A program made the position numbers and the translations under genes. DNA of 57,961 bases, the filler included, from Globobulimina sp. (lineage: Eukaryota): NCBI GenBank assembly GCA_003354225.1. It is 8 parts of 8 records of this genome, joined end to end, with 100 filler letters (N's around TTAATTAATTAA, not from the genome) between each part and the next. Parts side by side here need not be neighbours in the genome. Positions count along the whole stretch, not along the records: positions 36,353 to 43,498 come from PIVH01000191.1; 7 more parts are not named here. The stretch is one strand, 5' to 3'. The notes below the pieces were generated by a model. That model saw only the letters and a program-made list of their open reading frames with translations. It did no database searches and was not told the DNA's origin. Position 1 is the stretch's first letter; the number at the start of each line of letters is the position of its first letter. Below, piece by piece: positions 3,201 to 57,298 of the stretch.

Positions 3201-6200
3201 TTCGATCAAAGTAGTGTTAGCCAATGAATTTACAGATATTAGTATTGAATTTGCGCAGATCTCTATGCAATTAGCCAAGAAGCAGTATGAGTTTTTAATG
3301 GAGTTATTATCTGGCAATTTGGCGGAAGAAGCACAAGTATCGACCCGTGTGTACCCGCAACGGCAAATTGCTATGGAAGATGTGATCAGTGAGGAACAAA
3401 AAGAACGAGCCAAAGAAGCTGCGCTGGCTGCGGGTAAGGAACAGTTAAAGAAAGAAATGAAGATTAGTTTGAAGATTAATCAGTTTTCAGCGCATTTACT
3501 CAAACAATATGGCTTTGAATTTGATCCGCTTACACTTGAAGGGAAGGACTCATTGGTTGGCTTTAACATCGATGGATTGGCATTAAACGTAGTAATCGGT
3601 CAACAGATATCGGTTCAACTGACTATGGATGGCATGAGTTTGAAAGATGTGAGTTACGATACAATACAAAATGGGGTACAGGAGGTGTATAGAGATATAA
3701 TATGTTTTAACAGTAATTTTAAAGTAGAGGATGAATCCATGACTGATGCGACTACGCCAAGGAAATCATTGCAAGCTGTGTCGGAAACTCACAGTTTATT
3801 TCCATTTCATGTGATGGTCGATGTAGATCAAGCCAGCAATGAAACGTCAGTCCAGCTGCAAATGATTGGATTACAGTTCACTTTTGGTAGTGTATTGTGG
3901 ACCTTGTTAGAGTTTGCAAACATAAATCCGTCAAAAAAAGAGAAACTACCACCCGTACCGGACGAATTAAATAATTTCCAATTATCGTTGTTAAAAGGTG
4001 TGCTATATTATTATTATTGTATTTTCTTTTACTTTCATCCGTTGCCAACATAGGTGGTCATGTGTCGCAAGTGGCTATGCGAGATAACAAAGGCAGACCC
4101 ATGTTTGCACAGAGACAAGTATTTGAAGATGAGGCAGAGGACAAGAAAGCTATGGATGAGGAGGATGATGGCAAAGAAGAGGCGAAAGACGAGGCAGAGG
4201 CTGCTATCCCAATGACGTTAACCGTAGACGTACAGATACGTGATACCATGGTGAAGTTAATAAGATATCCGAAATTAGACAGTTCGCCCGCATTGGTGTT
4301 ACAATTGGATATCATAACTGGCGTTAAAATGGATTCGGCCACGCCGTTATTTGTCAATGCAAGAATAGCACACGTCCAGGCGTACCAAGCCATCATTTCC
4401 GTTGAAGATAAGCAATTATGCATCACTGTAAAAGACGGTGTGCCCAAAATCATTGAACCGTTTGATATAAATGCCACGATCCAACAATATAAATCTGCCT
4501 TTGATGGTTTAGCTGACCGGAAATCGGACGCCAAGGGCATGAAAGGCAGTGTTGTGATGGCACCCATGGTGATGCGGTTTGGTTACTCAGATTTTGATAT
4601 TTTAAAGAGTTCATTATCTGCAGTCGCACCGCCGGTGTTAGAACAGGCTGCGGACGAAGCGGAGGATGAGAAAAAGAGAGATTTGGCTGGCATTGATGAG
4701 AGCAAATTTGATCAAGGCGCAGATACTGGATCAGAGTCAAGTTTTTCCTCGGAAGAAGAGCTCAAAATATCCAAGAAAGAGCTGAGAATGAAGAAACAAA
4801 TGGAGCTGCAAAAGAAGAAAGACGAAGAGTTGCCCGATAAGGGAGAGATTGAATTTGCAGTCAACATTGGTACGATCAGTGTGGTTTTAGTGAATGACAA
4901 GAAACAACGCAGCGAGATTCCGTTGGCGCAGTTTGTGATTAATAATGTCGGAGCAGAGATATATTCGTATCGACAGGGTCTGACTATCGGTGCACAGTTT
5001 GGACTGTATGGCAATTACTGGAATAACGAGATTGCAGAATGGGAGCCTATGATCGAGAAATGGTCGGCCAAAGCGAACATTATCATGAATGCAGATTGTA
5101 CCTATATACAATTTCTGCCTGATCGGGTATTCAATGTATCATTTACGTATTTTATGGTTCAGTCTGCTATGGCTGCCGCCGAAGTAATTGTGGGTGGCAC
5201 TGATAGTAAGCCAGAGGAACGCAAAGAAGATTTGAGATTGAAACCGCGTTTATCCCCTCGTATATCTTCAGAACATCTGGCCAATATTGCCAAGAATGTG
5301 AAGTCGCATTGTTTGAATAATGAGACTGAATTTGGTTTAAGTGTGCGATGTTGGCAAAGTGATGAATTATTCGATGACGATAAGCAAACCATAGCCGTTA
5401 TGTTGGCGCAGTTAAAGAAATCCGTCACAAATGTGATAAAAGTTGGGCCAATGGATAGTTGCGATTTTGATACGTATCCCATTGAGATTGAGCGAGCATT
5501 TCAAAGCAAAGTTGGCATTGAGATCAGTTTAAATGATGCTGACTATGAACCGTTTATTATATTAAACACCAATCAAATCAGAGAGAGAACCTATTATTTA
5601 AAAAATAAAACAGATGAAGCAAATTCGTTGATATTGCAAGGGACGCATCAATTGGTTGGTGGTGCAAAGGAGATATGCATACATTCTCCCATTCAATTTG
5701 TAAATAAAACCGAGTTAAATTTATCATTGTTTGGTAGACAGATTGATTTAGAAAGGAATGGCAGTGCCTATTGTCCAGCTCTACGGTTTATTAAAGAGCC
5801 GACATTCGATATTGTACCAGTCACCAATGAGAATGACGAGAAACAGCAATTTAACACTGTGCGAGAATTACCATTATCGCCGTACACCGATGACGCATCG
5901 TACCCAATCCATACCAGACGCACTGACGGCATTATATATTCTATGATGTTGCATACCAAAAAGATTCATGCTGGGGAACGGTTATTGTTTTCCATTGACT
6001 CCACGGTTCGAGTGGAGAACTTATTGGTGTCTGATTTGTATATTACCTTTATTCAAAATGACAAACGCGATCAAGTGATGATCAAACCCGGCGAAAGTAA
6101 GAATGCGTACAGTGCGTATAAGTCCAAATTAGGCAGTTTAGAAATGAAACATAAAGGCTTAGTGTGTCGGGATGCCAATGCCAAGCAATCCATCGAAGCC

Positions 6201-7215: not shown

Positions 7216-7315
7216 NNNNNNNNNNNNNNNNNNNNNNNNNNNNNNNNNNNNNNNNNNNNTTAATTAATTAANNNNNNNNNNNNNNNNNNNNNNNNNNNNN
7301 NNNNNNNNNNNNNNN
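7216..7315. other. Artificial contig linker (N44-TTAATTAATTAA-N44)
   Basis: The same 100-nt spacer with stops in all six frames recurs at 14484-14583, 21745-21844, 29002-29101, 36253-36352, 43499-43598 and 50732-50831. Contig lengths descend: 7215, 7168, 7161, 7157, 7151, 7146, 7133, 7130. Confidence 0.99.
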
Positions 7316-14483: not shown

Positions 14484-14583
14484 NNNNNNNNNNNNNNNNN
14501 NNNNNNNNNNNNNNNNNNNNNNNNNNNTTAATTAATTAANNNNNNNNNNNNNNNNNNNNNNNNNNNNNNNNNNNNNNNNNNNN

Positions 14584-18375: not shown

Positions 18376-19752
18376 ATGTCAACATTAAATACACTGATTG
18401 GTGTTTTTTTTGGCATATTTGCAGAATTTTTTGGCTCCTCAGGAAACATACAAATAAAATATTCGCACAAATTGGAAGAAGAAAAAGCAACATCATCAAG
18501 GATACCATTATTTAAACGCACACGATTTCGTATAGCCTGCGCATTGTATGCATTCAATGGAGTTTGCAATTTAATATCATGCATATTTGCCTCATTAAAC
18601 GTGTTAGCTCCAACTGCCTCATTTACAATTGTTTTAAATGCAGCTTTAGCACATTTCTATTTCGGTGAGAAACTAACAAAATTAGGATACTTTGCATCTT
18701 TTATGATTATGATTGGATCCACAATCTCTGTCATTTATGGACACAACGAAAGTAAAACCTCATTTGCTTTAAGCGAATTAACGTCATTGGTGATGAGAGG
18801 TGCCTCCATTTTTTTTGCTTTGGCCGATTGGTTCATAATATCGTGCTGCATATTAATTGGAAAAGCATTATCAAAACAATTCGAATTGGAACAAAGAATT
18901 ACATTTCAAAATAACGGATCTGCAGATTCGAATCGGGATTTTGACGAACTATCTCAGTCAACTGTCGATAACGATGACTTAATGGAACGTATCAGATCGA
19001 CCGCTAATAAATTTTGCAAAGGGGGTAACAGTCAATACGCAATACATGCATTTTGCTATGCGTTTGCGACTGGTTCTATAGCTTCGTGGGTCCAGTTCTT
19101 TGGCAAAGCAGTTGGAGTTTTAATAGTTGTTAAGTGTATATAAGCCACTGCAGTCTGCATCACTCAAAGTCGTGACATGGTCCATCTGATCTAAGCTCAT
19201 TTTTCGAAGCAAAAAAAACTCCACTGTCCACAGTCCACACTTAACCTCTGATCTTTGTTAAATGTTTCTATATAGGAGTCATTTGGCGGAGATGATCAGT
19301 TTAATAAATTGGGCTCGTGGTTGTATATGATTTTCGCCATCTGGTTCATATATTGGATGATGATGTTACTCTCAGAAATGATGAGATTATTCGATGCAAT
19401 TTTAATTGTGCCCTTATATGAAACATTTATTATTTTTAACATGGTGTTATTGGATGTGGTATATTTTGGAAGAGATGATGGCAAGAATCAAAGTGGGACT
19501 TCTAAAATGTGGTTTTGGTTTGGTATTTTAATTTACATTCTGGGAATGTTTGTATTGACTGTTGCACAAAAAGATAACCATAGTGATCATGATAGTAATG
19601 AGGACCATGAATTATATGAGAATGATGATGGGAAGTTTTTATTCGAGGATGATATGGGAAATGAGGAACGACCATTAATTACAAAAAAACATACCATTGA
19701 TTATAAGAGTACATCCAAAAATAAGCAATATGAATTATATGATACTGTCTAG
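18376..19752 (+). CDS. NIPA-family (DMT superfamily) magnesium transporter; intron 19129-19275
   Basis: FASLNVLAPTASFTIVLNAALAHFYFGEKL and FDAILIVPLY motifs, multi-TM. Phase-0 intron GTT|gttaagt...tatag|GAG joins the two ORFs. Confidence 0.8.
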
Positions 19753-21516: not shown

Positions 21517-21879
21517 CTAACATTTCGGAAATCTTTTTTTTTTTGTTATTTTTTTCACAAAACCATTTATTTAATACTGGCGCAAGAAACTTCGAAGTTC
21601 AATGGAAGTTATCACCACTACTTCGAAAGGGTTTACCTATTTTGGATTCTGAATAATTGCAGAAATTTGAATAACTGCAGAAATCTGAAACTTGTATTAG
21701 GTATTTTTGCTTTATCGTAAGAATCTGTTTTTAAAGAGAAAAAANNNNNNNNNNNNNNNNNNNNNNNNNNNNNNNNNNNNNNNNNNNNTTAATTAATTAA
21801 NNNNNNNNNNNNNNNNNNNNNNNNNNNNNNNNNNNNNNNNNNNNTAATTCTCTGCCATCCGACGAAAATGTCAAATCTG

Positions 21880-29001: not shown

Positions 29002-29104
29002 NNNNNNNNNNNNNNNNNNNNNNNNNNNNNNNNNNNNNNNNNNNNTTAATTAATTAANNNNNNNNNNNNNNNNNNNNNNNNNNNNNNNNNNNNNNNNNNN
29101 NACT

Positions 29105-33100: not shown

Positions 33101-36100
33101 GTCGCTGATATGGACACTATCACAGATGGGGCATTGTTGGCGTTGTTTTGTGTGATATTTAATTCAATTTCTATCATAGATACACAAATATCACGTGATA
33201 GCACCTTTGCATCGCGTACAGTTAATATAAATTGATAAGGATATATTTCATTGGCAATGAATGTGTCGTTTTCATTGAAGAATATGTCAATGATTGGTGA
33301 TGATAATGCAGGTAATATAATATCATCACATTCTGTGTGTAACACATTACATTCCCAGCCATATAGTAATACATTGTCATCGGGGTCGTGTGTCCATTGA
33401 TTACCAATTAATTGTAAACTTAAGGCAGTAGTACGTGAATTAAACAGTGGAATTTGTATTGTATTGACTGTATAATAATAGATCGGCCAACAAATAATAG
33501 GTATGATTTTCAGGTATGTTCGTACATGACATATTTTAATATATTTGCCTCGTACATGATATTCAGAAACAGAAACATACACAAAACATCGCAAAAACTA
33601 TTTATATATATTTCTGTTTCTGTACATAAATTCGCTATGTTTCTGTTTCTGAATATCATGTACAAATCGTACCTATTTATTATTTAATTCATGTGCTACG
33701 TACCTTAATACATCAATTTGTGATATTTGTAAAGCAATATTTCTGTTTCCTCCACTAATTTGACATTCAATGTCAGAATATTTATACATTAATGATAATG
33801 TGTCAGATATAAAACAGTCATAATTACCACTACATTCAATCTCTAATTTAAATACATAATTTACACCTTTTTGTAACAATGTGCTGACATCCAACATTAA
33901 ATAATTATTATTTTGTCCTGCTACAAATGACAACAAGTCATTATATTTGCTGTTATCCAAACTTTCACCAACAACGACATCAAATGCTAGCATACTCCAT
34001 GAATATGTCAAAGACAATGATAACAAAGTGTTATTTGTCATATTTAAACACGAATCGATGAAAGATACAATGCCTTCAATTTGGATTTTATCCGAATATG
34101 CATCGAATATTCTCGGTCCATGCACAAATAATTTAGGAATCGCTTTGGATGATTTAGTAATAGCACCACTTGCATAATAACCTGTGGCTCCATACCATGA
34201 TGTCACAAATATATTATATGAAATATTTGAGCCTGGTTCAATATAATTACTATCAACTTCTACCATATATGTATCGTTAAATACATATGTTACAATATCA
34301 TTGATCATAATTTCCCATTTAATTTCTTCCGCTGTTCTTCCTCCTAAATTTGAGACACTTGCATCTAATAACAATGAATCACAGATTCCAATCTCATTTA
34401 ATTGTGGATTGATGAGTGATATTAATGGCACCGGCGGATTTAATGCAGCTTCGACATTAAATGATTGTTTTTCATTTAACGCAATAAAAAGTATATTATT
34501 GTCACTCCACTCAAATGTGGCACTGTTGATGGTCATTGTATCGTTGATTTGGATGGTAGAGGATGCGGATAATATGATTTTAATACTTTTGAACAATGAA
34601 CTCCATAAACACACAGAATCACGTAATAATATATTGGTGGAAGGGTCGAATATTTGTGTACAAAGTGATGGTGTCAATGGATGTATCGCAGCAACCTTGA
34701 GATCAATATAGATTTCAAAATATGAATCACTGAAAATGCTTCTGATCACAGCATCAAATATCTGTTGTATATAAATGAAATATTAACATGTTAACAACAA
34801 CTCAGTCGGATCTGTACAAATAACATTCAAAAAAGAAGTTTTTTCGGTGATTAAAAATGATCAAAGATATCATACTTGATGTTGTTGGGTCAGATGTTGT
34901 TGGAGTTGATGTTGTTGGATTAGAGGTTGTTGGATTTGCTGTTGTTGGGTCCGATGTCGTTGGATTTGCTGTTGTTGGAGTTGACGTTGTCGGATTTGAC
35001 GTTGTCGGATTTGCGGTTGTTGGGTCCGATGTTATTGGCGCTGCGGTCCAATGTATTTTAATAAATAATGAAGCAGCCAATAAATGAACATTCCTATCAT
35101 TATTTGTAAACTTGATGACAAAATGAGGGTCGACCACTTGTGATAAACTGATATGTAAAGCAGTAAAATTGTATGTTTGTATAGGTGAATAACATGAAAC
35201 ATCACTACCACACGGATTACCCCACCAATAATCGGTACTATCGAATGAACTGCTCGTCCACGTCCATAATATTGAGCCATTCACTGAATCAGAATCAATC
35301 ATTAATTGTAAAGATGAAGCAACTCCGCCACTATAACCCCATAAATATTGATACTGAAATTGAATAACATCAATATTCCTCAACGGATTTAATAAACAGT
35401 ACTGTGATACAGCATAACTAATTTGAGCAGGATTCCCAGATCGCAGTGAGGGCACCGCAGTGTTAGTGGTCTCCACATTAGCTCCGCCTAAATAGCTCCA
35501 ATCATTACCCTCAATTATATCCGTGGTCGGTATAATTGTGCCACTGTCACCCACTCCGATATCAACACAGTGCCTCGTGTTTGGTGAGGGAGTGCTTGGA
35601 TATTCTGTAATATTCACCCAATTGACTTTAATCAACAATGAAGACGCTAATAAATGAACGTTTCTATCGTTGTTCCAAAATCTTATGGAAAAATGTGGCG
35701 CTGTAAACTGAGATATGTTAATATCTAAATTTCGAAATATTTGAGATTGAACAGGCGAATAACAACCAAGGCCACCACTGCAGGAATCCCATGAATAAGA
35801 AGCATCGTCGAATGCGTTACTGGTCCAACTCCAAATAGTTTGGTCGTGTTTCGCTGTGTGAGTTGATTCAAGAATCAATTGCAAAAATGGTGCAATTCCA
35901 GTGGTATAACCCCAGGAATATTGAAAATCAAATTTAATTGTTTTAATGCTTGCGAATGGATTTAAAAAACAATGTGTAGAAATGGCGTGGGTTACATTAT
36001 CCGGAGGATCACCGGATCGTATTATTTCAAGCGGAGTACCACTGCGCGATGCACCATTCTCATAATCCCAATCTGCGCCAGAACTTACATTTGTAGTTGG

Positions 36101-36241: not shown

Positions 36242-36352
36242 GTGTCTATTGGNNNNNNNNNNNNNNNNNNNNNNNNNNNNNNNNNNNNNNNNNNNNTTAA
36301 TTAATTAANNNNNNNNNNNNNNNNNNNNNNNNNNNNNNNNNNNNNNNNNNNN

Positions 36353-36471
36353 TTGATATTGCTTTCAGTAATCATCACGGTATTGAATATGAGATATTGA
36401 GTCAGTAAATACTTCCTTTTAAAGTTTACGTTTTTTCCAGATTTCAGAAAAACCTCAAGCTTCCTCAAAAT
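36353..36471 (+). repeat. 119-nt exact direct repeat, copy 1 (contig start)
   Basis: ttgatattgctttcagtaatc...cttcctcaaaat, identical to 43380-43498. Confidence 0.97.
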
Positions 36472-36532
36472 CAATAACCGCTCAGTCAAGAAACAAACAA
36501 ACTGCTCAGTCAAGCCACGCGTTCAAGTCACG

Positions 36533-39500
36533 ATGAGTGATTCCGATGATGAGAAAGATTATGTGGAAGGAATACATGTTCCATCCGACAAATATCATTT
36601 CCCACCAAATACCGTTTTTGATAATCACATCAAAAGTGGACCCATCAGAACAGCAGCAAATCGTGGCAAATTATCGAGTGAGACAATTGCAGCAATTGCT
36701 GCGTTATTAAAAACAAATATGATCCTTCCTTATGGAAACAGGAAAGGATTCAACGACGACCTCCAATGTATCAATGATGCATACCACAAAGCCTTAGCTT
36801 TTGAGGCGTCACATCCTGACACGCCACGACCAGATCACACCGACATCCAACAATTACTCGCCATTGAAACATGGTTCGAAAATGGATTAACAGGGAGAAA
36901 ACAGAAAAATTGGGAAACGCGCAATGGTTTACACAATGCCGAAGACACTGTGAATGCGTGGATATTCCCAAACCCTCCACAAGAACCTCGAGTTCGTGCA
37001 CGAGATGAAAACAGCTCGGATTCGGGGATTGAGTCTGACAAAGAAGAGGCTGTCGCATCAAACGATGAGGATGAGAATGAGGAGAAAGCGGAAGGAAAAG
37101 AGGATTATTTCAGTATACAATCAGAAACGATTGAAATTGAAATTGAAAGCGATTCGAATGAGGAGATTGAGAATGATGAGAATCAGAACAATCAGAATAT
37201 TCGAGAAAATTTCAAAGATTCGAAATTTGTAAAAAGTGCATTGGCATCGAAGTATGAGAAGGATTGGACGCAACGCTTGAAAGCTACCATCGATTACAGA
37301 TCGGGAATGGTAACAAATATTGCAAAGCATCGCAAATTAAAAAGGATAACCTATGACGCTGTCCGTGGCGAAGCAAATGCATACAATCATCGAATGTGTC
37401 AATATCTCATAAATTTTCGCGTCTATCATCATTTACCGCCATCATATAAGAAATTTGGCCGTTTATTAGGTTTAGAAGATAAAAAATTAAAATCTACGGT
37501 GATTGACACATATGTTAAGCAATTCACATTTTTACAAAACAAGAAATTTATAAATAAGGCAGGAAAACGGATTAAATCCTATGATTTTATTCCCAATGAA
37601 TTATATCACTGTAAAAAAGGAAAAATAAAAGAAAAAAGCAAACAAAAAGCATCCAAGAAACGAGGTTATTCGGATTGGGATGAATTAGCATCTCTTGGTC
37701 CAAAACCTAAGAAACGAAAGACATCGGTCTTAGTTTTGAAGGATGATGATACCACCTCCGATATTGAGGAAATACCCGCACATAAAAAACATACACCACC
37801 ACAACCGAGTTATATTAAAGAGATTATCGCAAATCAGAATGAATTGGCGATGAGTGTGGCTGTCCTAACATCGAAAGCGGAGCAAAAATCGAACGCTTCC
37901 CCGCAAAAACAGTCCGTAAACGAAATGCTAAACTCAAATAAGCGGGGTATTCATCGTTGGAGTCGTGAATATTACGTAAATAAAACAACGCATGGCTTCG
38001 AATTAATCGCCGACAAAACAACAGAATATCAACGCGATTCGAGCCATGAAGACTTATATCAGAGGATGGTGAATAGGAAGAGAAAAAATAAGGATTTGGT
38101 GGGTGATTTACAAGGTAAGTTGGGTCTGATCCCTTTTATCATGTGAGTCCGGTGAATAATACGCTTATTCACAACTTTTTTGTGTGACTTTGGGTGCTTC
38201 TTTGTGCGGCACATAGAATGTATACAAAAATAGTTTGTTTGGAGTGAAACGTTTTTGTGTGATTTTCTGTGTTTGTTTCACCCTATTTTTCCAAATCCGG
38301 CCCCCCTTTTTCCTTTTCTTTCAGTGTTCCGACAATGATATATATGGTCAGATTGCTTCGAAGGTGAACGGTATTCCTAACTTAACTTTCGAGCACGAGA
38401 CCAATGCTAAAAAATACTGGTCAATACATATAATATGCACCATAGATACCATGTATTTTAGCACGATGACCGAATTAAAATGGTCATTTTTTCTCATACC
38501 AATGCCAATAAATTAACCTTGTTTGTATACTCTCAGAGGATGATTCGGAGGACAGTGACGATTCTGATTCGTATAAAAAGAAAAAGAAACACAAAACATC
38601 GAAATTGGACAAGAAATATCGGTCTCATACAGAGTTTATATTGTTTCTTTGGCGAATGCGTCCGAAAAAGTTCACGGATATTATGTTAGATATCATCCGT
38701 TACGCTCAAAGGACCCAAAATTTAACGAGAGCAGATATCAATACATCGATTAATAATATTTTCAAAGAAAAATCAAATATATTTGCTTTAATAACCGAGG
38801 TAAAGAGACTTTTAAATCTATGGTCCCTTTATTTGACTAACTATCAATCAGTAATCACTGTAAAATTGCAAGCTGTGTATACAAAGAAAACAATTTCTTG
38901 TAAACCATCGCGCGAAATCGAGTGTTATTTGAGGATGTTATCGGTGGCAATAAATGATTGGACTCAATTTGAAATAATCACAAAAACGTTAGTCGACGAT
39001 CCAGAGATTGATGAACATTTATTTTATGTATTTCTAAACAAATCATTCAGAAAATCATATGACAAAAAGACATCGATCATTATTGATGTCCAAGACACCC
39101 ATTTACGCCAACAATTGAATTTGGAGAAAAGGGACTCGTCAAAATGTGATGAATTATGGTTGCAACGTGTTTTTAACGACTATGATCATGTCAAATTTTT
39201 AAAAACACAGAAACATTTAAATACGACGCCATCAAATACCGCATCATCAAACAAGGAAAGCATCATAAAGGAATTTGGGACAATTCCAAAACGACCAACA
39301 TTCAAAAGAAATGGTCTAAGTCCCAAAGAGAGACAAGACCGAGCCAAACGTTTCAGAAATTGGATAGAAACAACACGGCCGGCTTTAAAACAGGAATTTC
39401 AATCGAAATTGAATGGTGGTTACTGTGCAGCTCATCATATGGATAATGAATTTTGTCGAGTAAAAAATGGGAGAGAATGTAGAGCAGGAAATAAAACAAG

Positions 39501-39567
39501 AAAACATGAATGTATTTGTGGTTCATTTAGCCATACAATCTCTCAGTGCAAATCTATTTTTGCCTGA
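36533..39567 (+). CDS. Gag-like protein, predicted spliced (exons 36533-38114 and 38537-39567; 870 aa)
   Basis: Donor CAAG|gtaagt at 38115 and acceptor ctcag|AG at 38536 join the 537-aa and 320-aa ORFs in frame (…DLQ-E-DDSEDSDDSDSYKKKKKH…). The C-terminal Cys/His motif C-x9-C-x7-C-x8-H-x-C-x-C-x4-H-x4-C resembles YR-retroelement gag fingers. Confidence 0.7.
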
Positions 39568-39804
39568 TTTTGTTACAAACTGACACTCTCAAACTCATAA
39601 TCGGTAAAAACTGTCCACTCTGATAAAACGGGTGGACACTTTTTGCACTAAAATGACTCATAATCGACAAAAATATTTTAATCATATCCTCATCTCGCTA
39701 GCTCTACACCACTTTTCCCCAATTTTTCGTTTTTCAAATAATCACTCTGTTTTTCAGAAACAATCTTGTTTTCATATTCTGAATTTTTAAACTTGTTTAC
39801 ATAG

Positions 39805-41514
39805 AAAATGTTATCCCAATATTACAAGAAATTGATTCAGAATGTGCTAATTTGCTCCAAGAATTAGTCTTATTATGGCAAAATCCGCCGAAAGTCAAAC
39901 AACATTTTAATATAAACTTATTCCGTAAATATTTAAGCAATCACCCAAATGGAGAAATCGAGGTAAATTTGATTAAAGATGGATATCCTTTACATTTAAA
40001 AAAGAGAGATCCATCAAAATTATGCAAGAGCGTGTCAAATATGCTTGTTAATAAGAATGGTAAAAGAAGCGAAAAAGGCATATATAACTACAACACATAA
40101 ACATTTACATTATAATCTAAACTTATTATGTGTTCCCAAAAGGAACAATGAAACACATTTAATGACAGAGATTCGAGTAGCAAGACATGGTTCTTTCGCT
40201 ACCAAAAGATCGATATCCATAAATGATTTAATTGACAAAGATAAATGTAAAATGCCTACGCTTCCAAACCTTCGTAAATACATTGAATTACTTCTTAAAT
40301 ATAATTATGTCTCCCTTCGTGACCTAAAAGATGCTTTCAGACAATTGAATTTAGCGTCATCTGACGCTGATTACATACAATATTGCATCTTCGGTCTCAG
40401 TTTCAGAGATCTTCGCCAAGCATATGGTTTAGCCTCAGCAGCAGCAAACTGTCAACATTTTGCACAAATACTTATTTGGATCCTTGAAAATAAATTCTTG
40501 AATAAACATCAAAAGGACAGAATTCTTGTCCATATCGATGATTTTATTTTAGCTGCAGACAGTGAAAAAGAGGCAATTGCCCTCGCTAATAAATTTGATA
40601 CAATGTGTCATCAATTAAATATCGCTGTATCTCATGCCAAGGATGAAAATGGAATCTGTATTGGTGTGGTACATGGAACAGGTTTTAATTTAAAAACAAA
40701 ACATGTTTACATACCGGTACATAAATATAATGAATTAAAGAATGGTTTAAGTTTAATGATAAAATATCGATATGCTACAGGACGTGCACTGGAATCTATA
40801 TGCGGGAAAATGATGCATTGGTCCCAACTAAGGAAACCAGCAAAGGTTTTGTGTTATCGTTTATTGAGATTAATACATAAAAAGATTCGATCAAATCCAA
40901 AACTAAAAAATAAAATATTTTGGATACCTGATTTGATTGTAATGGATCTCAAATTTTGGTTACAGTACGCATCTTATATGCGGAAAGTGACAATGCATTC
41001 AGTGGTCCACCAGCCTTCTATAACAATTACAGGAGCAACAGATGCGAGTAATATTGGTGGTGGCTTTGTAGTGGGTTCATATTATGGTGCGTATGAATTC
41101 ATTGATGGGCCCAATTTATTTGGTATAAATCATAGACAAATGTCTATAAATTACCAGGAAGCGCATGCAATAATTACTTTGTTATATAACTATCGACACA
41201 TACTATCCGGTCGACAATTATTGCTTTATATTGACAACACATCAGTTCTTTTCAGTATCTATAAACATTGGGCTGGCAGTGAAAATCTAATGGAATATAT
41301 TCAAGAAATTGTTCTTTTAATGTGCATATATTCAATTGGTCTCCGCGTCGAATTTATACCATCATCTTTTAATGATTTAGCGGATTCACTATCTCGTTTT
41401 GATTGGAAACGTTTTTATAATACAATTGATGCATATAATTTGAAAATGAATGATTCACAAACACAAATTGAATATTATCCAACATTACGTTTGCTACGTA
41501 AATATGATTTGTAA
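39805..41514 (+). CDS. Reverse transcriptase + RNase H (pol); +1 frame break within 40000-40100
   Basis: RT motifs SLRDLKDAFRQL, AYGLASAA, VHIDDFIL; RNase H motifs TDASNIGGG, SINYQEAHAI, IDNTSV, NDLADSLSR. The N-terminal part (YLSNHPN..LIKDGYPL) lies in another frame upstream. Confidence 0.9.
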
Positions 41515-41733
41515 TAACTTGTACTAATCTGAGTATTCATTTCAATCAGTTGCGACTATTGACAATATGTTTATGTTTCTGATTTTATATTACAATGACT
41601 TAAGCCCAAGTTCCCATGATACCAACGACTGAAAATGAACTGACTTACAAAACACTTACTTTTATTTCAAAAACCTTTCCTCGAGAAACACAAACTACCG
41701 CTAACAACTAATATTTTTGTTGTACATATTTAG

Positions 41734-43008
41734 AATTTACATCAAGAACAATATGGGCGAGACCGTTTGCAAAACAAGATGTTAAAACAACAAAACGGAT
41801 CATCAGAGATTTGTTTCGATCACGGAGGATAACCACCAAAGAGAATTATATTTCAGTACTTAAAGATTGGTGGGGTTATTGTATAGAAAATGGCAGCAAT
41901 CCATTTACACCGAATATAAATCCGACAGTCGCAATTTATTGGCAATATGATAGAGCAGATCGTCTCGGTTCATGTAATTCTCATTCAACGTGGTCATCAG
42001 CTCTATCTTGGTGGGTAAAATCATGTGGTAAGACACCAATTTATTATAAGGATCTCTTTTATAGAGATGTCCATGATACGATGGTGAAATTATATAAAAT
42101 TAAAAGGAAACCACGCCTACCTCTAAAAATCCAATGGATTGTGAGATATTTGAAATATATTAATGTGACACCAAAAACATGGTCAAATTGCAAATTAGAT
42201 GATTTAACATTGGCTTTTTTATTATTAATGGCCTTTTTTACAATGAGCCGTCCAGCGGAGATCCTATTTACTGACAGTACGGAAAATCCGGACTGGGAAA
42301 TTATTTCAACGGGTCTCCGTTGGGGCGATATCACATTACATAATATTAACAAAGTATATAATCGGAGATATATGAAAATATATATTCATTGGTATAAAAA
42401 CCAAGAATTTCGGAATGAGCCGAAATTGATTTATATGGCACCTCCAGTTTGCCACAAGAAAAATTGTCATTGCCATATGTTAGATTTTTATGCGATTTAT
42501 TTAATTTTATTGGAGAGGAGAACAGAGATTGTAAATAAATTGCGTTTACTCTCAAGTCCGTATTCAAAAAAATCCAAAGCAAAGAAAACCCAGAAACGAT
42601 TGAAAAATTTGAATATAGACAAAGAGTGTTATATCTTTGTGGGCTCAAATGGAGCCATTTGGCGACCATCAAAGCTTTCATCCATTATGAAACATTTAAG
42701 TCTTAGCCATTCAATCCCCACAATCGTATCCTGCCTATAGCATTCGCATAGGATCGACATCGCTATGTCATTTACAAGAAATTGATTTACTTAAAGTGAT
42801 TCGATTTGTTGTCTGGTCAATCAAAGATTTACCACATGTTTCCACCAGATATATCAACATCACATTACAACAATTACGCATTATACCGTTTGAAATGTTA
42901 CATGGTCGTAACAGACCAGGTCATAATAATATTGATAAAAGTAATGGCCATTTGAAAACATATAATATTTGGGAAGGAAATTTATGTGAAGAATTATTTA
43001 CCAGTTAA
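41734..43008 (+). CDS. Tyrosine recombinase; +1 frame break within 42700-42740
   Basis: N-terminal TTKENY..WWGYC..NPF; catalytic R (FFTMSRPAEI) and K (WYKNQ). In the next frame: YSIRIGSTS (HxxR box), VVWS and RYI (nucleophile Tyr). Confidence 0.88.
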
Positions 43009-43082
43009 ATAGAATTGATTTTAAATAATTTGAGAAACACTTTAAATAACTTTTAAATGACTTTATAGCAATGACTACTAAC

Positions 43083-43106
43083 AAATTTCAATCTTGATTG
43101 AAATTT
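43083..43106. other. Perfect 11-bp inverted repeat in the element's non-coding region
   Basis: aaatttcaatc-tt-gattgaaattt. Confidence 0.8.
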
Positions 43107-43379
43107 ATCTTGACTGGTTACAGAATGCAAATATCAAAATATTCCACTCTTCCAGGGCACACAGGGAGTAGATCTTTACAGAAACAGTTTATTTATATAT
43201 AAAGAAAACGTTTCTGAACTGATCAAACCGGAGAATAAAGAACCTGACACTTTGTATCCGGTTATTCACCCGTATGATGTCAGATTGTCTGTTGTGAGAT
43301 GAGTGGTCTTATAATTAGTTGAGTCCAATTCTCAACCATTTCTCAGATTTATTTTTACGAAGCACACATTTTAATATCC

Positions 43380-43498
43380 TTGATATTGCTTTCAGTAATC
43401 ATCACGGTATTGAATATGAGATATTGAGTCAGTAAATACTTCCTTTTAAAGTTTACGTTTTTTCCAGATTTCAGAAAAACCTCAAGCTTCCTCAAAAT
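43380..43498 (+). repeat. 119-nt exact direct repeat, copy 2 (contig end)
   Basis: Identical to 36353-36471. Confidence 0.97.
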
Positions 43499-43608
43499 NN
43501 NNNNNNNNNNNNNNNNNNNNNNNNNNNNNNNNNNNNNNNNNNTTAATTAATTAANNNNNNNNNNNNNNNNNNNNNNNNNNNNNNNNNNNNNNNNNNNNGA
43601 ATGGATAA

Positions 43609-50731: not shown

Positions 50732-50831
50732 NNNNNNNNNNNNNNNNNNNNNNNNNNNNNNNNNNNNNNNNNNNNTTAATTAATTAANNNNNNNNNNNNN
50801 NNNNNNNNNNNNNNNNNNNNNNNNNNNNNNN

Positions 50832-51614
50832 GTTGAAGAATTTGCTCATTTTGCATACATTTCGGATATTGAGTTGACACAAAAGATTAACATAAATGAT
50901 AAAAAAGCATTGCAGGATTTATTAAGCAAACACAGTATGATTTTATTCAACCAACAACTGACCAAAGCAACGCAATTATCAGATTTGGCAAAAGTGTTCT
51001 CGCCACGATTACAGCTATTTGGAGACACATTGAATGAGATACAAAAGTATATCGTTGAGAATAGATCGAAAGAGCTGTTAGGCTCTGACTTGTGGCACAG
51101 CGATTTGTCATATCACCCAATACCTTCATATTGCACATTGTTGTATGCCATGGAAGTACCAAACGAATCAAATCAAGGCAACACACAATTTATAAATATG
51201 GAAAAACGTTATGACGCATTACCCGATACATTGAAAGCTTATTATTCGACATTGAAAGGTGTGCATAGAAAATATGAATCGAAAAAGAGCGAAACAATAC
51301 GCAATGATAAGGATACGACACATCCTCTGATCAGAGTACATCCCATCAAAGGCAGTAAAGTAATATTCGCAAATCCAGCATATACTCATAAAGTAATTGA
51401 TGGTGAAACTGGAAATGATTTGGAACAAAGTGGTGAAATATTAGAGGAGATATTTGATCATTGCCTGTCATCAAAGTTTGTGTTTGAACATGAATGGAAT
51501 GCGGGAGATTTATTGATTTGGGATAATATCTCATTGCTACACAAAGCCACCACACTTGCGATGGACCCCAAATTCAAAAGGGTTATGTTGCGGTGCTGCA
51601 CTCTTTGCAATTAA
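50832..51614 (+). CDS. TauD/TfdA family Fe(II)/2-oxoglutarate dioxygenase, 5' truncated
   Basis: WHSDLSY (HxD), GNTQF, HPLIRVHP, W..GDLLIWDN..LLHKA, R.M.R. The frame is open from the contig start. Confidence 0.9.
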   Translation, partial: VEEFAHFAYISDIELTQKININDKKALQDLLSKHSMILFNQQLTKATQLSDLAKVFSPRLQLFGDTLNEIQKYIVENRSKELLGSDLWHSDLSYHPIPSYCTLLYAMEVPNESNQGNTQFINMEKRYDALPDTLKAYYSTLKGVHRKYESKKSETIRNDKDTTHPLIRVHPIKGSKVIFANPAYTHKVIDGETGNDLEQSGEILEEIFDHCLSSKFVFEHEWNAGDLLIWDNISLLHKATTLAMDPKFKRVMLRCCTLCN

Positions 51615-54600
51615 TAGTATTCATTACACGAACATTTGCCATTTTCAAATACATGAACCCGATTTGGATCAGACACAATAAATTTCCTTTGCTCCAAAGC
51701 AGACACAAACTTAATAAAATTATGGCAATCTTGACATATTCTTAAATTTTTGTTTATTACAATTTGATAATCTTTGCTCGTTTTCAATAAACCAAATGAT
51801 AATGCAATTTTTTCCGAATGCCTCAACAAAACGGATTCATTGCTTTCATTGCTTTTTAACTTTCGAGTTATTAATGTTTCATCCAATTCATATCCATATC
51901 CATGCCTCAATTTATTTAATAATTCATACAATTTGTTGTCAATCTCATTCGCATTATACTCGTTATTGCCTTTATAGGCAACGCCAGCCACAAACTTATG
52001 CATTTTGCCATCAATATATATTTCAGACATTGCCTCGGGTTTTGTCCAGCCATTCGCCATTCTCTTATTCCAAATCTCTTCACTTTTCTCATATTCATTA
52101 TAATATCCATAAATATTGCACATCAAAACAGAAGCAGCGGACATCGCACTTTCATTAAAATCTCCAAATTTCACATTCATTTTCTCATAGATGGCACGCG
52201 CCATTTCCTTATTTTTATGCTTATGGCAGCCACTTATTAATGAGACCCACGCAGTGAGCTCTGATGAGGTGCTCTCATTTGTCAATATCAAAGCTTGTGC
52301 TTCTGCCAATTCACCGGCTCTCGCCAAGCAATCAATTAATGTCGATATTACTTTTGGGGAATATTTGATTTCTGCATTTTCTATCTCACTCCAAACACAT
52401 TTGGCTGCCATCACATCGCCGGAATGGCTGCACGCTCCAATCAGATGCATATACGTCTTGATATCGGCGGAGATATCTCTTCTTTTTTGCAAATCGACAA
52501 ATATTTGCATGGCTGAACTCGTGTCTCCATTCCTTGCGAATGCGTGAATCAATGCATTATAAATGCCAATATTCTTTTTATTTTCATTTGAAATGTTATC
52601 AAATATTTCCATACATTTATTTACTTCGCCACATTTGCCGTACATTTTGATTAAATTTATTTGAATGCCAATATCATTCATTATGTCCTTCTCAACTTTT
52701 ATTTTATTATAAATCTCATTTCCAACATGCAAAATAGTGCCATTTGTACACGCTTTCAACGCCGTTACATAACAACCAATCTCTGGCGATAATAATGCAT
52801 TGATTTCCGAAATATGCTCAAATAATTCGATACATTTTGAATATAAATTGCAACACCAAAACGCCTCCATCATGGCACTGATGGTAATGATATTTTTCTT
52901 TTTATTTGCTATATCTTCAAATATTTTCACTGCTTCGTTAATGTCTTGACAATGGCCGTAAAATAAAATCAGTGTGGTTTGCAACTTAATATTTGTGGAT
53001 GGCGACAACTTAATGTTGTTTGCTATTATTTGCTTTCCTTTTTCATATTGTTTTGAGTGAATACAAGCAGTGATTGCCAATAAATGGCAAATATCATCAA
53101 ACAGATCAGTGTCCATACTGTCATATAACAGCAACGCCTTTTCATTCTCGTCATTATCAATATAACTCGACAGCAGTGCATTGAAGCAAATTATATCTCG
53201 TTTGTCAGCCGCAATGCCATAGAATATATGTTCTGCACTCTTTATATCTTTGCAATTCCCGTACATTGTAATCAAACCATTCTTAATTTGCAATTGATTG
53301 TCGTTTAAACCTTGCGATATTAGCATGGAGTGAATGTCTTTCCCTTTTTCCAAATTGCACATAGCTGCACACGCTTTGATGGCTAATGTGTATAAGATGT
53401 CATCCTTGTAATTACTGGTAATATGATCATCAAATAGCAGCAATGCTTTATGTGCTAAGCTATTGTTTGTAAAAGCTTTCATCATCGAACAAACAGAGAC
53501 TGTGTCTTTCTTATAATTTGCAATCGACTCAAATACTTTTATTGCATTATTAATATCGCCACAATCGCCGTAAAAATTAATCAATGTATTTAGGATTTGG
53601 ATACAATGCAAATTATGTTTATTTAAATTGTGTTCATGGATATGTTTCCCAACTGAATAGTTTCTATTCTTTGTGCATATTTTCACTGCTAACAAATGGG
53701 GGACATTCTCATTACACAACTGATGTTTGAATGAATCATAAAGTTGCAATGCTTTATCATCAAACGAATTGTTGATATATATTTTCATCATACAGCCAAC
53801 AGAATAAATTGCATTCTCATTGCCTATATTTGCAAATATCTTATTTGCTGATGAAAGATCCGAAAAATATCCATAAAAATCAATCAATGCGTTGTGTATT
53901 GCAATGCAATTTGGATTATTTTTAATGAAAACCTCAATATTTTTATGTATTTCTTTTCCTTTTATGAGGTCTCCAGAGAGCATACAAGATTTTATTGCAA
54001 ATAAATGAGACACTTCGTCCTTTTCAGCAGTGATGGAGTCATAATAAAACAATGCGATTTCATATTGTCTGAGATGGACAAATCCTTTTATCATCGCATT
54101 AATACTTTGAATATTTTCGTGTTTCAATCCATCAAATAATAATTTCGCAGCAGAAACATCATTGCATTTAAAATAAAATTCAATCAAAGCATTTGCCGCT
54201 TTATTTGTTTTCTTATCGTTGAGATTTTTAATATTTTCTCTAATTTTATTTCCTTTTTCTAAATCACTTCGAAACCCACACGCTTTGATGGCTAATGTAT
54301 GAATAATATCATTTACTTTGATCTTATTATTTAACAATGAAACATCATATAATTCCAATGCATTCTCATATTTCTTGCCATTTATCAGACATTTCATCAA
54401 CGCATTGATTGTCGCAGTATTCTTTGCACCATTTTCTATATTTTCATACACCAATTCTGCTCCATTGGTATCGCCAAAATGGCCATAAAAATCAATCAAC
54501 GCATTGTTCAGCTGGATGGAGTCAATATTTTCGTTCTTATATTTTTCATGAATTTTCTTTCCAAGCAACAAATTATTTGTTTTTATGCACATTTTTATTC

Positions 54601-55467
54601 CCAACATATCAGTCACTGTGTTCTGTAGCGTATTGCATTTGAGATATAATTGCAACGCATTTAAGTGCTGATTGCATTGAATGAGTACTTTCATCATTGC
54701 GCTTAAACTGATTTCATCCTTTTTGGCAATGCCATTAAATACATTGGTCGCTTTTTGGTGATCCTTATAATTTCCATACGCATTAATCAGTGCATTTTGA
54801 ATGATAATATTCTCATTTTGTCCCACAAAGAAATCTTTATCAATTAAACAATGAATATATTCCAATGCATTCGCTTCTTTATTATTGCAACATTTCGATA
54901 TTAGTTTATTGATCAAATATCCTTTCATTTGTAACTGATTGCAATGGGTCTCACTTTCTGTCCATTTCAGCATTTCCACGCATTTATTTATATCCATTTT
55001 ATTGGATTCAATGCAACATTCCAGCCACAAACTGCATACATTGCAAATATTATCCTTTGAGTTTGAATGTTTGTCGATTGATTCTTGAATATCTGTCCAA
55101 ACCAATTGGATTTTGTCACTATAATTGCAATGTAACATTAGTTTCAAGAATGATATTAAAAATGATGGATTTAGCGAATTGTTGAGTTGATGGTAAATAT
55201 CAAAACCGTGCTTCATAACATTATTACGTGAGAATGAGTGTTTCTTTTGGTGCAATCTTTTAATTAATTGAGTTGGGTCGGCATTGGTTGTACAGAAATG
55301 TATGATTGATACTCTGCGGAATAATATACGATCTGTTCAGTTGCATATAAAATTAAAATGTAAAAACAATTGAATTTTCTGGAATATGATGACTGATGAC
55401 AGTACATACTGTGTTGGATCTTGTGTGCTGATGTTTGTCGTATAATTAGTGACTGCTTGCAAGACAT
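51611..55467 (-). CDS. PLS-class PPR protein with E1/E2 and DYW-type cytidine deaminase domain; intron 55333-55409
   Basis: About 8 recurring PPR triplets (NALIDFYG / AMMK / LAIKAC..GK.IH), then GACSHSG, LIDCLARAGEL, WVSLISGC, VLMCNIY, followed by HSEKIA, KNLRICQDCH and HVFENGKCSCNEYY. Exon 1 (55410-55467) splices in frame. Confidence 0.94.
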
Positions 55468-55530: not shown

Positions 55531-57298
55531 ATGGACGCGTTTATCCACAAATTAATCACGTTTGGAGGTTCTAAACCTCGTCAAGTAGCCAGAACAGTGT
55601 TTGTATTGCTATTATTTGGTTACGCAACGGGTCGTTTCTCTCGATCTGTATTCCGCCACGGCCTGAAAAGAACCTTATTCTATCTTGGCTTTCTTGCCTG
55701 GAAATCATATAAAGGCAAAACTGGATATCAAAAACAAATGACTGAGATCAAAACTGCATTCCAAGGCAGTTTATACCACCCCGCGGTCAAAAAGACGCCA
55801 ATTAACAAACAGCTCCCAACCAAATCAACCCCCACTTCCGAAATCATAGCGAAATTAAAAAAATGGAGTGCCTACGAAACAGAACTATGGAATGGAAAAA
55901 AGAGAATCTCCTCCGGTGCAGTCTACCATGGCGGCACACAATTGACCTCATTACAAAACGAGGCCTATTCATTATTTTCCATCGCGAATCCCTTACATCC
56001 CGATGTATTCCCATTTACTCGCAAATTGGAATCGGAAGTTATAAGTATGACAATCTCTTATTTTTCGGGCAATCCATACAAACAAAGAGGTTTATTGACT
56101 TGTGGTGGCACGGAGAGCATTTGTATGGCGATTCGAGCGTACAAAAATTGGGCGCGTAGAGTCAAAGGCATATACCATCCGGAATTGGTTGTGCCGCAAT
56201 CCGCACATTCTGCGTTCGGTAAAGCGTGCGAAATGTTTGAGATCAAAGTGATTGCAGTACAGCCAAACCAGACTACATTTGAAGTGGAAGTGGCTGATGT
56301 ACGAAAATGCATCACTTCCAACACAATTGCTTTAGTGGGCAGTGCGCCGCAATATGCACAAGGTGTATTGGACCCGATTGTGAGTTTAAGTAAATTAGCA
56401 TTGGAGTTTGGTATTGGATTGCATGTCGATTGTTGTTTAGGGTCGTTTTTAATGCCTACTATACAGCGAATGGGGTTAAGTTATATTATGGTATAGAAAT
56501 TTCTTGATTTGTATTGTGTTTTTGTGTGTTTTTGCAGTTATGATGTTGCTCCGTTTGATTTTCGTGTGCCGGGAGTGACGACAATCAGTGCAGATACGCA
56601 TAAATTTGGATATGCGCAAAAAGGGACTTCAGTGGTTATGTTTCGAGATAATGAGTTGCGAAGGGATGCGTATTTTGTGCATTCTGAGTCGTCCATTGGT
56701 ATTTATTGTACTCCTACCATTTCAGGTCTGTGCCATGATGGCATTGTTTTTTTTTAGTTAGTGAGGTAAAAAACTTTAGTTGAAATGATTAACTTCAAAA
56801 GGCTCTCGGAGTGGAGGGGTAATAGCAGCGGCATGGTCTGCTATGATGAGTTTAGGAGAGGAAGGATACAGAAAAGAAGCAGAGTTGATAATGGATGCAG
56901 TGAAAGTAATTCGTGATGGAATTGCGGACATTGAGGGTATCAAAGTGGCGGGGAATCCAGTCATGGCTGCGGTTGGTTTTGTATCTGTTTGTGATTTAAA
57001 TGTATATCATATATCATCTGCAATGAGTAAAAGAGGATGGACATTAAATAACTGTCAGGATCCGCCATGTACACATATTTGTGTGACGCGAGCAAATTGC
57101 ATTCAAGCAAAGAAACGCTTTGTTTCAGATTTAAGTGATTCTGTGCTGGACGTGCGTGAAAATCCGGAGGAGTATAAACAATGTGATGGTGCATTGTATG
57201 GTGTTATGGTTTCTTTACCAGATTCTGGTGCAAAAGGGGACATAATGTATGAATATTTGGATGTTATGTTAGGGTTAGTTGACGAACAAGAATCATAA
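55531..57298 (+). CDS. SGPL1: Sphingosine-1-phosphate lyase (PLP-dependent); introns 56475-56537 and about 56726-56801
   Basis: SGAVYHG, NPLHPDVFP, GGTESI, AHSAFGKA, LHVDCCLG, FDFRVPGVTTISADTHKFGY (PLP lysine), GSRSG. Confidence 0.94.

Follow-up and report, generated by a model that had tools for sequence, protein, structure and literature searches.

The 57,961-nucleotide (nt) window of Globobulimina sp. DNA analyzed here (assembly GCA_003354225.1) contains, on contig PIVH01000191.1, a retroelement whose gene set comprises a first open reading frame (ORF1), a zinc-knuckle gag, a pol gene for reverse transcriptase (RT) and a putative RNase H, and a tyrosine recombinase (YR)-like ORF. Our reading, to which we assign a probability of roughly 65%, is that this is a defective YR retroelement of Ngaro-like gene order in which ORF1 is spliced to gag, splicing from a phase-1 donor farther upstream leads to pol and YR, and the unspliced RNA is the one that is copied. 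One only of the four junctions predicted by a first-pass annotation of this DNA, that between ORF1 and gag, has been shown directly. The junctions leading to pol and YR rest on strong conservation among relatives. The feature as such is real and unusual, and it extends past this single copy.

A single Gag-like gene is split into the ORF1 and gag exons

The features that define the first junction are as follows:

36533..38114, plus strand: ORF1 exon, from an ATG at 36533 through 527 codons and 1 base to the donor at which it ends; N-terminal part of the Gag-like protein
38115..38536, plus strand: intron 1 between ORF1 and gag, 422 nt, GTAAGT..CTCAG, phase 1, with stops in all frames
38537..39567, plus strand: gag exon, with a C-terminal zinc-knuckle-like CxCx4Hx4C and a stop at 39565-39567

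Evidence for the removal of intron 1 comes from three sequencing runs of one sample (X1, X2, and X3), whose kind is not on record and none of which is listed as RNA; the share of sampled words was 0.94 for X1, 0.07 for X2, and 0.06 for X3. Contigs of these runs were aligned to the element at 80% likeness, and 15 of the resulting 34 joints were listed. A joint from 38112 to 38535 (“skips 422, GT..AG (cut +2)”), which equals 38114^38537, was found in one contig each of X2 and X3. The joined X2 contig (865 nt) aligned over its whole length with 255 nt on the shorter side of the joint, and the shorter side in X3 measured 28 nt. X1 holds no such joint; one of its contigs (36353-38149) runs unspliced across the donor with a single differing letter, and another (38421-39557) runs across the acceptor. 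The joined form belongs to a slightly different copy: its ORF1 side departs by 26 letters and 11 gap letters, its gag side by 4 letters. Irrespective of whether X2 and X3 represent RNA or DNA, a form without precisely this GT..AG interval exists, and the junction 38114^38537 predicted by the first-pass annotation is therefore present in joined contigs of two runs. With its GT..AG bounds, precise removal, noncoding interior, and conserved sites, the interval 38115-38536 has the properties of a spliceosomal intron, and removal of this 422-nt phase-1 intron joins ORF1 to gag as the two exons of a single Gag-like gene. X1 joints marked “between: not known” stem from diverged copies aligned at 80% likeness and were not used, and a joint that “goes back 7024” was rejected as a signal, as it merely reflects a duplicated stretch of 119 nt.

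Relatives of the element were sought by scanning metagenome contigs with the pol alignment, which gave 17 loci representing about 12 lineages below 80% pol identity; scans of genome contigs and viral contigs returned no relative. One of these loci, L004, is rich in introns. Its five introns (354-409, 653-704, 1098-1161, 1261-1482, and 2020-2080, with lengths of 56, 52, 64, 222, and 61 nt) run from GT to CAG, all five junctions fall after the first codon base (phase 1), and without them the broken frames merge into a single open frame of 726 codons reaching to the gag stop. Four of them begin with GTATGT or GTACGT and the fifth with GTTAAG, and three carry ACTAAC- or CTAAAC-like branch motifs. 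On this frame, the ORF1 tail of the window aligns to residue 362 and gag from residue 364, that is, back to back across the 222-nt intron, which likewise identifies ORF1 and gag as one Gag-like gene. The three short ORF1 introns of L004 are missing from ORF1 in the window, which means that introns have been gained or lost between lineages. Given the uniform phase 1, any pairing of donor and acceptor stays in frame, and this claim of the first-pass annotation agrees with all five L004 introns.

The closest relative, L001, aligns over the whole element at about 80% nucleotide identity. Its gag, pol, and YR exons are 84.1%, 86.5%, and 86.1% identical to those of the window without any indel except a 26-nt lesion, and the indels in ORF1 are multiples of 3, bar one of 2 nt. 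The three spacers, by comparison, are 74.8%, 78.8%, and 71.1% identical, and their indels of 1 to 90 nt are mostly not multiples of 3; those in intron 1 (74.8% identity) measure 1, 2, 3, and 5 nt. The GT and AG dinucleotides are kept at all four splice sites in L001. Directly before the gag junction codon, L001 has a TAA, such that its gag frame cannot be read from upstream. Alignment of the copies thus bore out the expectation that the three acceptors and the ORF1-end donor keep their phase in relatives, including distant ones, while intron interiors drift by indels that are not multiples of 3.

Conserved phase-1 AGs precede the gag, pol, and YR frames

Farther downstream, the following features were annotated (a caret marks a candidate splice point):

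39783..39804, plus strand: putative pol acceptor region, with a stop at 39780-39782, a 65% pyrimidine stretch, and acatAG^AA; AG at 39803-39804, exon from 39805
39805..41514, plus strand: pol exon, comprising an N-terminal region, RT (..VHIDDF..), and a putative RNase H; the frame changes at about 40046-40050
41498..41503, plus strand: candidate pol-end donor (GTAAAT, phase 1), which precedes the pol stop by seven codons and scores below 7 of 9
41712..41733, plus strand: putative YR acceptor region, with a stop at 41709-41711, a T-rich tract, and tttAG^AA; AG at 41732-41733, exon from 41734
41734..43008, plus strand: YR-like exon, with a frame change near 42700; relatives read through in one frame

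The gag frame is built in the same way, with a stop at 38509-38511 and ctcAG^AG, whose AG lies at 38535-38536 ahead of the exon from 38537. All three acceptors are in phase 1, the AG being made up of the last base of one codon and the first base of the next, and both donors, CAAG^GTAAGT (38114^38115) and CTAC^GTAAAT (41497^41498), are in phase 1 as well. A CGCTAAC lies ~30 nt upstream of the YR acceptor, and CCGCTAACA is common to the window and L004. Reexamination of the sequence confirmed these phases, and the coordinates of stops, YAGs, and GTs given by the first-pass annotation were all correct. The first in-frame ATG after the AG follows at a distance of 40 codons in gag, 79 in pol, and 116 in YR. 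Frameshifting or readthrough as a link between the ORFs was rejected, since in every spacer each of the three frames is interrupted by stops.

Between its opening and the AG, each frame in the window has 7-8 codon boundaries, and in this copy alone the three phase-1 AGs could be a matter of chance. Their conservation in relatives, however, carries the acceptor pattern well beyond chance. A phase-1 AG stands at the head of pol in all 14 loci that reach it (11 lineages), at the head of YR in 10 of 10 loci (8 lineages), and at the head of gag in the 4 of 4 loci that reach it (3 lineages), while the background inside pol is 266 phase-1 AGs at 4865 codon boundaries (5.5%). In pol, the AG codon lies 9-10 codons before a conserved I/L-D in 8 lineages and 6 codons before it in L014; in YR, the AG lies 34-35 codons before an invariant T-K, as counted from printed sequences. 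Ahead of the AG, the residue can be I, T, L, S, or P, but in each case its codon ends in A, which points to a constraint on the nucleotide or RNA level and not on the protein. The 20 nt before the pol and YR AGs contain 35-80% pyrimidines, and the sites before pol (39804) and YR (41733) combine a conserved AG, a fixed phase, and a mostly pyrimidine-rich stretch, as expected of acceptors. No in-frame ATG occurs within 79 codons past the AG in 6 of the 10 listed pol heads, nor within 23 codons in 8 of the 10 YR heads. Of 21 database pol proteins whose sequence reaches beyond this point and whose alignment starts at query residue 7 or before, 18 have a residue pair of L/S/T followed by E/D/G/A, which is compatible with the same AG, albeit as weaker evidence, as their codons are unseen. 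The initial “M” of several database pol proteins was dismissed as evidence for an ATG start, the matching codon in L004 being TTG. The relatives range from AT-rich to GC-rich sequence, which suggests diverse hosts. In two GC-rich relatives, L011 (2200-2290) and L009 (1693-1765), the YR frame is open for 23-28 codons before a CACACAG acceptor.

In the mechanism that we propose, ORF1 is joined to gag by removal of intron 1 at 38114^38537, and the AGs before pol and YR probably act as 3' splice sites that continue the frame of a coding exon farther upstream, from which the start codon is taken; in this lineage, pol and YR would thus lack start codons of their own. The donor for pol and YR would most likely be the one at 38115, with 39804 and 41733 as alternative acceptors; one 5' splice site would then serve several 3' splice sites and give rise to in-frame ORF1-pol and ORF1-YR products. 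As a retroelement has retained these introns, it would have to be the unspliced RNA that is copied, and this RNA would serve as the genome in the style of complex retroviruses.

Several observations weigh against this reading. Among the listed joints there is none at 38114^39805, 38114^41734, or 41497^41734; apart from two stray matches of 37 nt, no X2 or X3 contig is listed that covers pol or YR, an absence of cover that is not evidence in itself. No protein of 600-2000 amino acids (aa) that fuses ORF1 or pol to YR was found in what are mostly genomic databases, which makes this a weak blank, and the longest protein among 51 matches at E<=1e-30 has 638 aa. The window copy and L001 are both defective, and neither is a working element. 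The pol AGs of L010, L013/L016, and L014 are without a firm alignment anchor, those of L010 and L013/L016 having been placed by eye. Finally, an in-frame ATG follows one codon after the AG in pol of L005/L006/L015 and in YR of L004 and L011, making independent initiation possible there, and the YR of L011 opens with an ATG that overlaps the pol stop (ATGA); in this locus, two ways of expression may coexist. The statement of the first-pass annotation that pol and YR are without an ATG until well inside conserved sequence hence holds for the window (79 and 116 codons), whereas it fails in these relatives. Its alternative-splicing scheme as a whole stands as far as the ORF1-gag junction is joined and the sites are conserved, but no pol or YR joint is listed and the donor at the pol end is not conserved.

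Part of these observations would also be expected if the ORF1-gag intron alone were real and pol and YR were expressed without splicing, for instance, from internal transcripts with non-AUG or downstream initiation, the AGs serving some other purpose. The ORF1-gag junction is the only one seen, fused proteins were not found, some lineages have an ATG of their own for pol or YR, and the noncoding blocks in intron 1 and the gag-pol spacer (see below) could be internal promoters. We nevertheless regard this explanation as unlikely: 11 lineages for pol and 8 for YR retain the AG and its phase, compared with a background of 5.5%, coding conservation begins right at the AG, and in the lineage of the window the first ATGs lie 79 (pol) and 116 (YR) codons inside conserved sequence.

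Alternatively, the AGs before gag, pol, and YR might be acceptors for a trans-spliced leader that cuts a polycistronic transcript into separate mRNAs. Every ORF does have a conserved AG behind a mostly pyrimidine-rich stretch, and in some lineages an ATG follows two bases after it. Yet the ORF1 donor and the gag acceptor are joined in cis, an ATG after the AG is absent from most lineages, a single phase at all sites would not be maintained by a noncoding leader, and relatives that range from AT-rich to GC-rich suggest diverse hosts; we therefore consider trans-splicing very improbable. Even less credence, in fact next to none, can be given to the notion of a decayed element whose ATG-less frames and nearby AGs arose by chance. 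The window copy has two frame breaks, and for a single copy it is no more than mildly unlikely to have three phase-1 AGs near its frame openings, but the conservation across lineages, the spliced contig, and the single open frame of L004 contradict it.

Candidate donors for pol and YR

The donor at 38115 is the sole 9/9 match to the donor consensus in the element; the other strong donor-like site, at 38143 (GTGAGT), matches at 8/9 and is in phase 2. The ORF1-end donor CAAG^GT is kept in the same four loci that show the gag AG (the window, L001, L004, and L015), and the ORF1-related proteins P0111 and P0112 end in ..IQGK...

A different donor for pol and YR is conceivable at the very start of ORF1, where a mini-exon would end one base after the start codon (ATG A^GTGATT, 36536^36537), such that the products would begin with M-K-... 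This site is in phase 1, L001 reads ATG A^GTGAGT at the equivalent position, and all four ORF1 proteins start with MS[DE]; the ATGs found one codon after the AG in some lineages would also be easier to understand if the upstream exon added almost nothing. On the other hand, the site scores below 7 of 9 in the window, DNA at this position is available from only two close relatives, so that its conservation is uninformative, and no listed joint departs from 36536. We consider a mini-exon donor quite unlikely and continue to favor splicing from 38115.

The second donor named by the first-pass annotation, at the end of pol (41498), did not hold up as part of a general scheme, being both a weak site (below 7 of 9) and one that is not conserved across lineages. 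Only the window, L001, and L005/L006 (C^GTGAAG) retain it. Elsewhere, the GTAAGT of L002 is in phase 2 and the sole GT of L004 in phase 0; the pol tails of L007 and L008 lack a GT, and that of L009 showed none in phase 1. The pol-end donor is therefore doubtful, and a pol-YR fusion would be at most a lineage-specific extra.

Gene identity and integrity of the element

For ORF1, three related proteins (P0110-P0112) were found at 47-70% identity, and all four ORF1 proteins share the N-terminus MS[DE]. Pfam contains no family for ORF1, gag, or any YR, and the ESM Atlas held nothing usable for ORF1. In pol, the RT matched PF00078 (RVT_1) over 40000-41514 with 30.4 bits at a cut-off of 29.6, and the pol of L004 reached 31.7 bits. 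The RNase H matches to PF17917 (RT_RNaseH), at 17.4 bits for the window and 20.3 for L004, both fall below the cut-off of 24.8; the motifs TDAS, QEAH, YIDN, and ADSLSR are visible by eye in this region.

The recombinase is probably a tyrosine recombinase. Pfam gave no match for the YRs of the four intact relatives and a weak DUF3435 match for a piece of the YR in the window. A profile built from the YRs of these four relatives matched one entry when searched against the PDB, the integrase 3nkh (E=0.018), over the catalytic region. The AlphaFold model of the L002 YR is poor (mean pLDDT of 54.9, with the C-terminal third below 35), and a Foldseek search with this weak model returned nearly exclusively tyrosine recombinases (Cre, lambda Int, XerA, XerH, and Tn1549 Int), with Cre (1pvp_B, E=6.4e-3) as the best match and TM values of 0.27-0.33. 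In the YRs of L005 and L008, the second Arg of HxxR is replaced by Lys.

No methyltransferase domain is present, as the pol stop (41512-41514) comes just past RNase H and is followed by a 219-nt spacer with stops in all frames; this makes the gene order Ngaro-like. None of the 109 + 150 listed relatives bears the name of a transposable element family, and two are merely called “hypothetical protein.”

The window copy is defective, with pol and YR both broken in frame, while relatives read both genes in one frame; these breaks had been overlooked by the first-pass annotation. Opening at 39783, the pol frame comes to an end at 40100; a different frame, from 40000, encodes the RT. The cause is that the window copy lacks 26 nt that are present in L001 at about 40046. 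L001 is defective as well, in its case in ORF1, where one 2-nt indel breaks the frame.

Conserved noncoding blocks

Two noncoding parts of the element stand out in the comparison with relatives:

38115..38258, plus strand: blocks at the 5' end of intron 1, GGGTCTG, CATCATGTGAGTCC, and GACTTTGGGTG; the span includes the donor-like site at 38143 and the ORF1 stop
39590..39675, plus strand: gag-pol spacer element, 86 nt, in which T5 comes after the hairpin GTCCAC..GTGGAC; the direct repeat ACTCATAATCG lies on its flanks

The intron 1 blocks have counterparts at 2091-2233 in L001 and 1261-1400 in L004 and are not common to L015. They are kept although the pol protein of L004 is only 58% identical to that of the window, and the proteins P0111 and P0112 read this stretch in another frame. 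Together, these two observations point to a signal at the nucleotide level that is found only in unspliced RNA, and it is tempting to speculate that the blocks could mark this RNA. A hammerhead ribozyme and a tRNA primer-binding site were considered for the conserved intronic block and dropped, as no matching motif was visible by eye.

The spacer element at 39590-39675 is nearly identical in L001, while its flanks carry 90- and 43-nt indels. A 211-nt X3 contig whose flanks differ matches part of it, and X1 depth is higher over the corresponding bin. Rfam contained no family for either conserved element; the single match, to a long noncoding RNA (E=0.5), was not above chance.

Comparison with known retroelements

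Retroelements are expected to shed introns. Splicing to downstream ORFs is nonetheless standard in retroviruses and known in some retrotransposons with long terminal repeats (LTRs), and the Pol mRNA of foamy viruses is spliced. The proposal made here resembles the env mRNA of simple retroviruses and Cer1 CERV, in which a downstream ORF is reached via an upstream donor and the unspliced RNA is the genome. It differs from them in that retroviruses and LTR elements use an integrase and LTRs, whereas the present element has a YR, its Gag itself needs splicing, and all of its introns are in phase 1. Foamy viruses also express Pol apart from Gag, according to the excerpted text of PMC8402755.

With respect to gene content, the element is most like the Ngaro-like YR retrotransposons of the DIRS order, which the excerpts of PMC8547959 and PMC6681497 describe as having a Gag-like ORF, RT/RNase H, and YR without a methyltransferase. 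In those excerpts, Ngaro elements appear as ORF1, ORF2, and ORF3, with introns and splicing unmentioned; in contrast, the Gag gene is here split by an intron, and pol and YR are start-less in the window behind conserved candidate acceptors. In PMC4209133, Penelope-like elements are described as exceptional among retroelements in keeping spliceosomal introns. They differ from the present element in their RT clade and endonuclease, and no multiacceptor scheme for separate ORFs is implied for them there. The excerpts of the YR and DIRS literature compared here (PMC8547959, PMC7192593, PMC12477816, PMC6681497, PMC4157794, PMC12130899, and PMC5718144) mention introns in a DIRS context solely as artificial reporter introns placed in DIRS-1 (PMC7192593). 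The full-text literature yielded no report of native splicing in YR retroelements, a search whose scope did not include Goodwin and Poulter 2004 on Ngaro and supplements, where an earlier mention is possible.

Beyond this one element, it is conceivable that the whole clade, across its AT-rich and GC-rich members, is built from phase-1 exons, with Gag constitutively spliced, Pol and the recombinase made as in-frame fusions to the N-terminal Gag exon by alternative choice of the 3' splice site, and a conserved signal near the start of the first intron that would label unspliced RNA as the template in the manner of a retroviral packaging signal. We put this forward tentatively, at somewhat less than even odds. 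If it were true, 3' splice-site choice would replace in this clade the frameshifting and overlapping ORFs of other retroelements, and YR elements would become a third major class of retroelements that use splicing for gene expression. Such a clade would keep its introns in one phase and need them for Gag and probably also for Pol and the recombinase. This would in turn imply a way of telling spliced from unspliced RNA for reverse transcription, for which the intronic blocks after the donor are a candidate. Annotation of transposable elements based on ORFs would score pol and YR frames of this kind as start-less pseudogenes and split Gag in two.

Contig layout, element ends, and neighboring genes

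The window consists of 8 contigs, sorted from the longest (7215 nt) to the shortest (7130 nt), with N44-TTAATTAATTAA-N44 linkers between them at 7216-7315, 14484-14583, 21745-21844, 29002-29101, 36253-36352, 43499-43598, and 50732-50831; genes that adjoin each other across these linkers are therefore not neighbors in the genome. The element fills exactly one contig, 36353-43498 (7146 nt), whose ends are as follows:

36353..36471, plus strand: left contig end, identical to 43380-43498; collapsed or circular assembly path, in which the 5' repeat and leader of the element begin
43009..43498, plus strand: 3' noncoding region, running into the repeated 119 nt (43380-43498)

The first and last 119 nt of the contig are 100% identical and form a direct repeat with a spacing of 7027, which indicates that the assembly was closed into a loop whose unit is 7027 nt. 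Such a loop fits what is expected from a multicopy element with terminal direct repeats, from a tandem pair, or from a circle. The stretch that resembles L001 sets in at 43374, which corresponds to 36347, right behind the 3' noncoding region; the 5' end of the element is placed there for this reason. The closed 119-nt loop and the start of the L001 likeness fit the B1-A2 junction of split direct repeats (A1 .. B1 A2 B2), as found in Ngaro-like elements, and equally a tandem or circular form.

The other contigs contain ordinary AT-rich eukaryotic genes with short GT..AG introns of roughly 50-130 nt whose ends are T-rich. Examples are found at 3990-4053, 56494-56537, and 19134-19276, and the 422-nt intron of the element is long by comparison. 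On the neighboring contig, a 500-codon frame on the minus strand ends in a Thr/Pro-rich run of repeats (34802-35000) in which ..TSDPTTANPTTSNPTTSTPTT.. occurs twice. An intron-less frame of 1241 codons on the minus strand (51611-55336) contains many PPR-like repeats and ends in a tail (..CQDCH..CSCNEYY) that, judging from its sequence pattern, we take to be a DYW-type deaminase-like domain.

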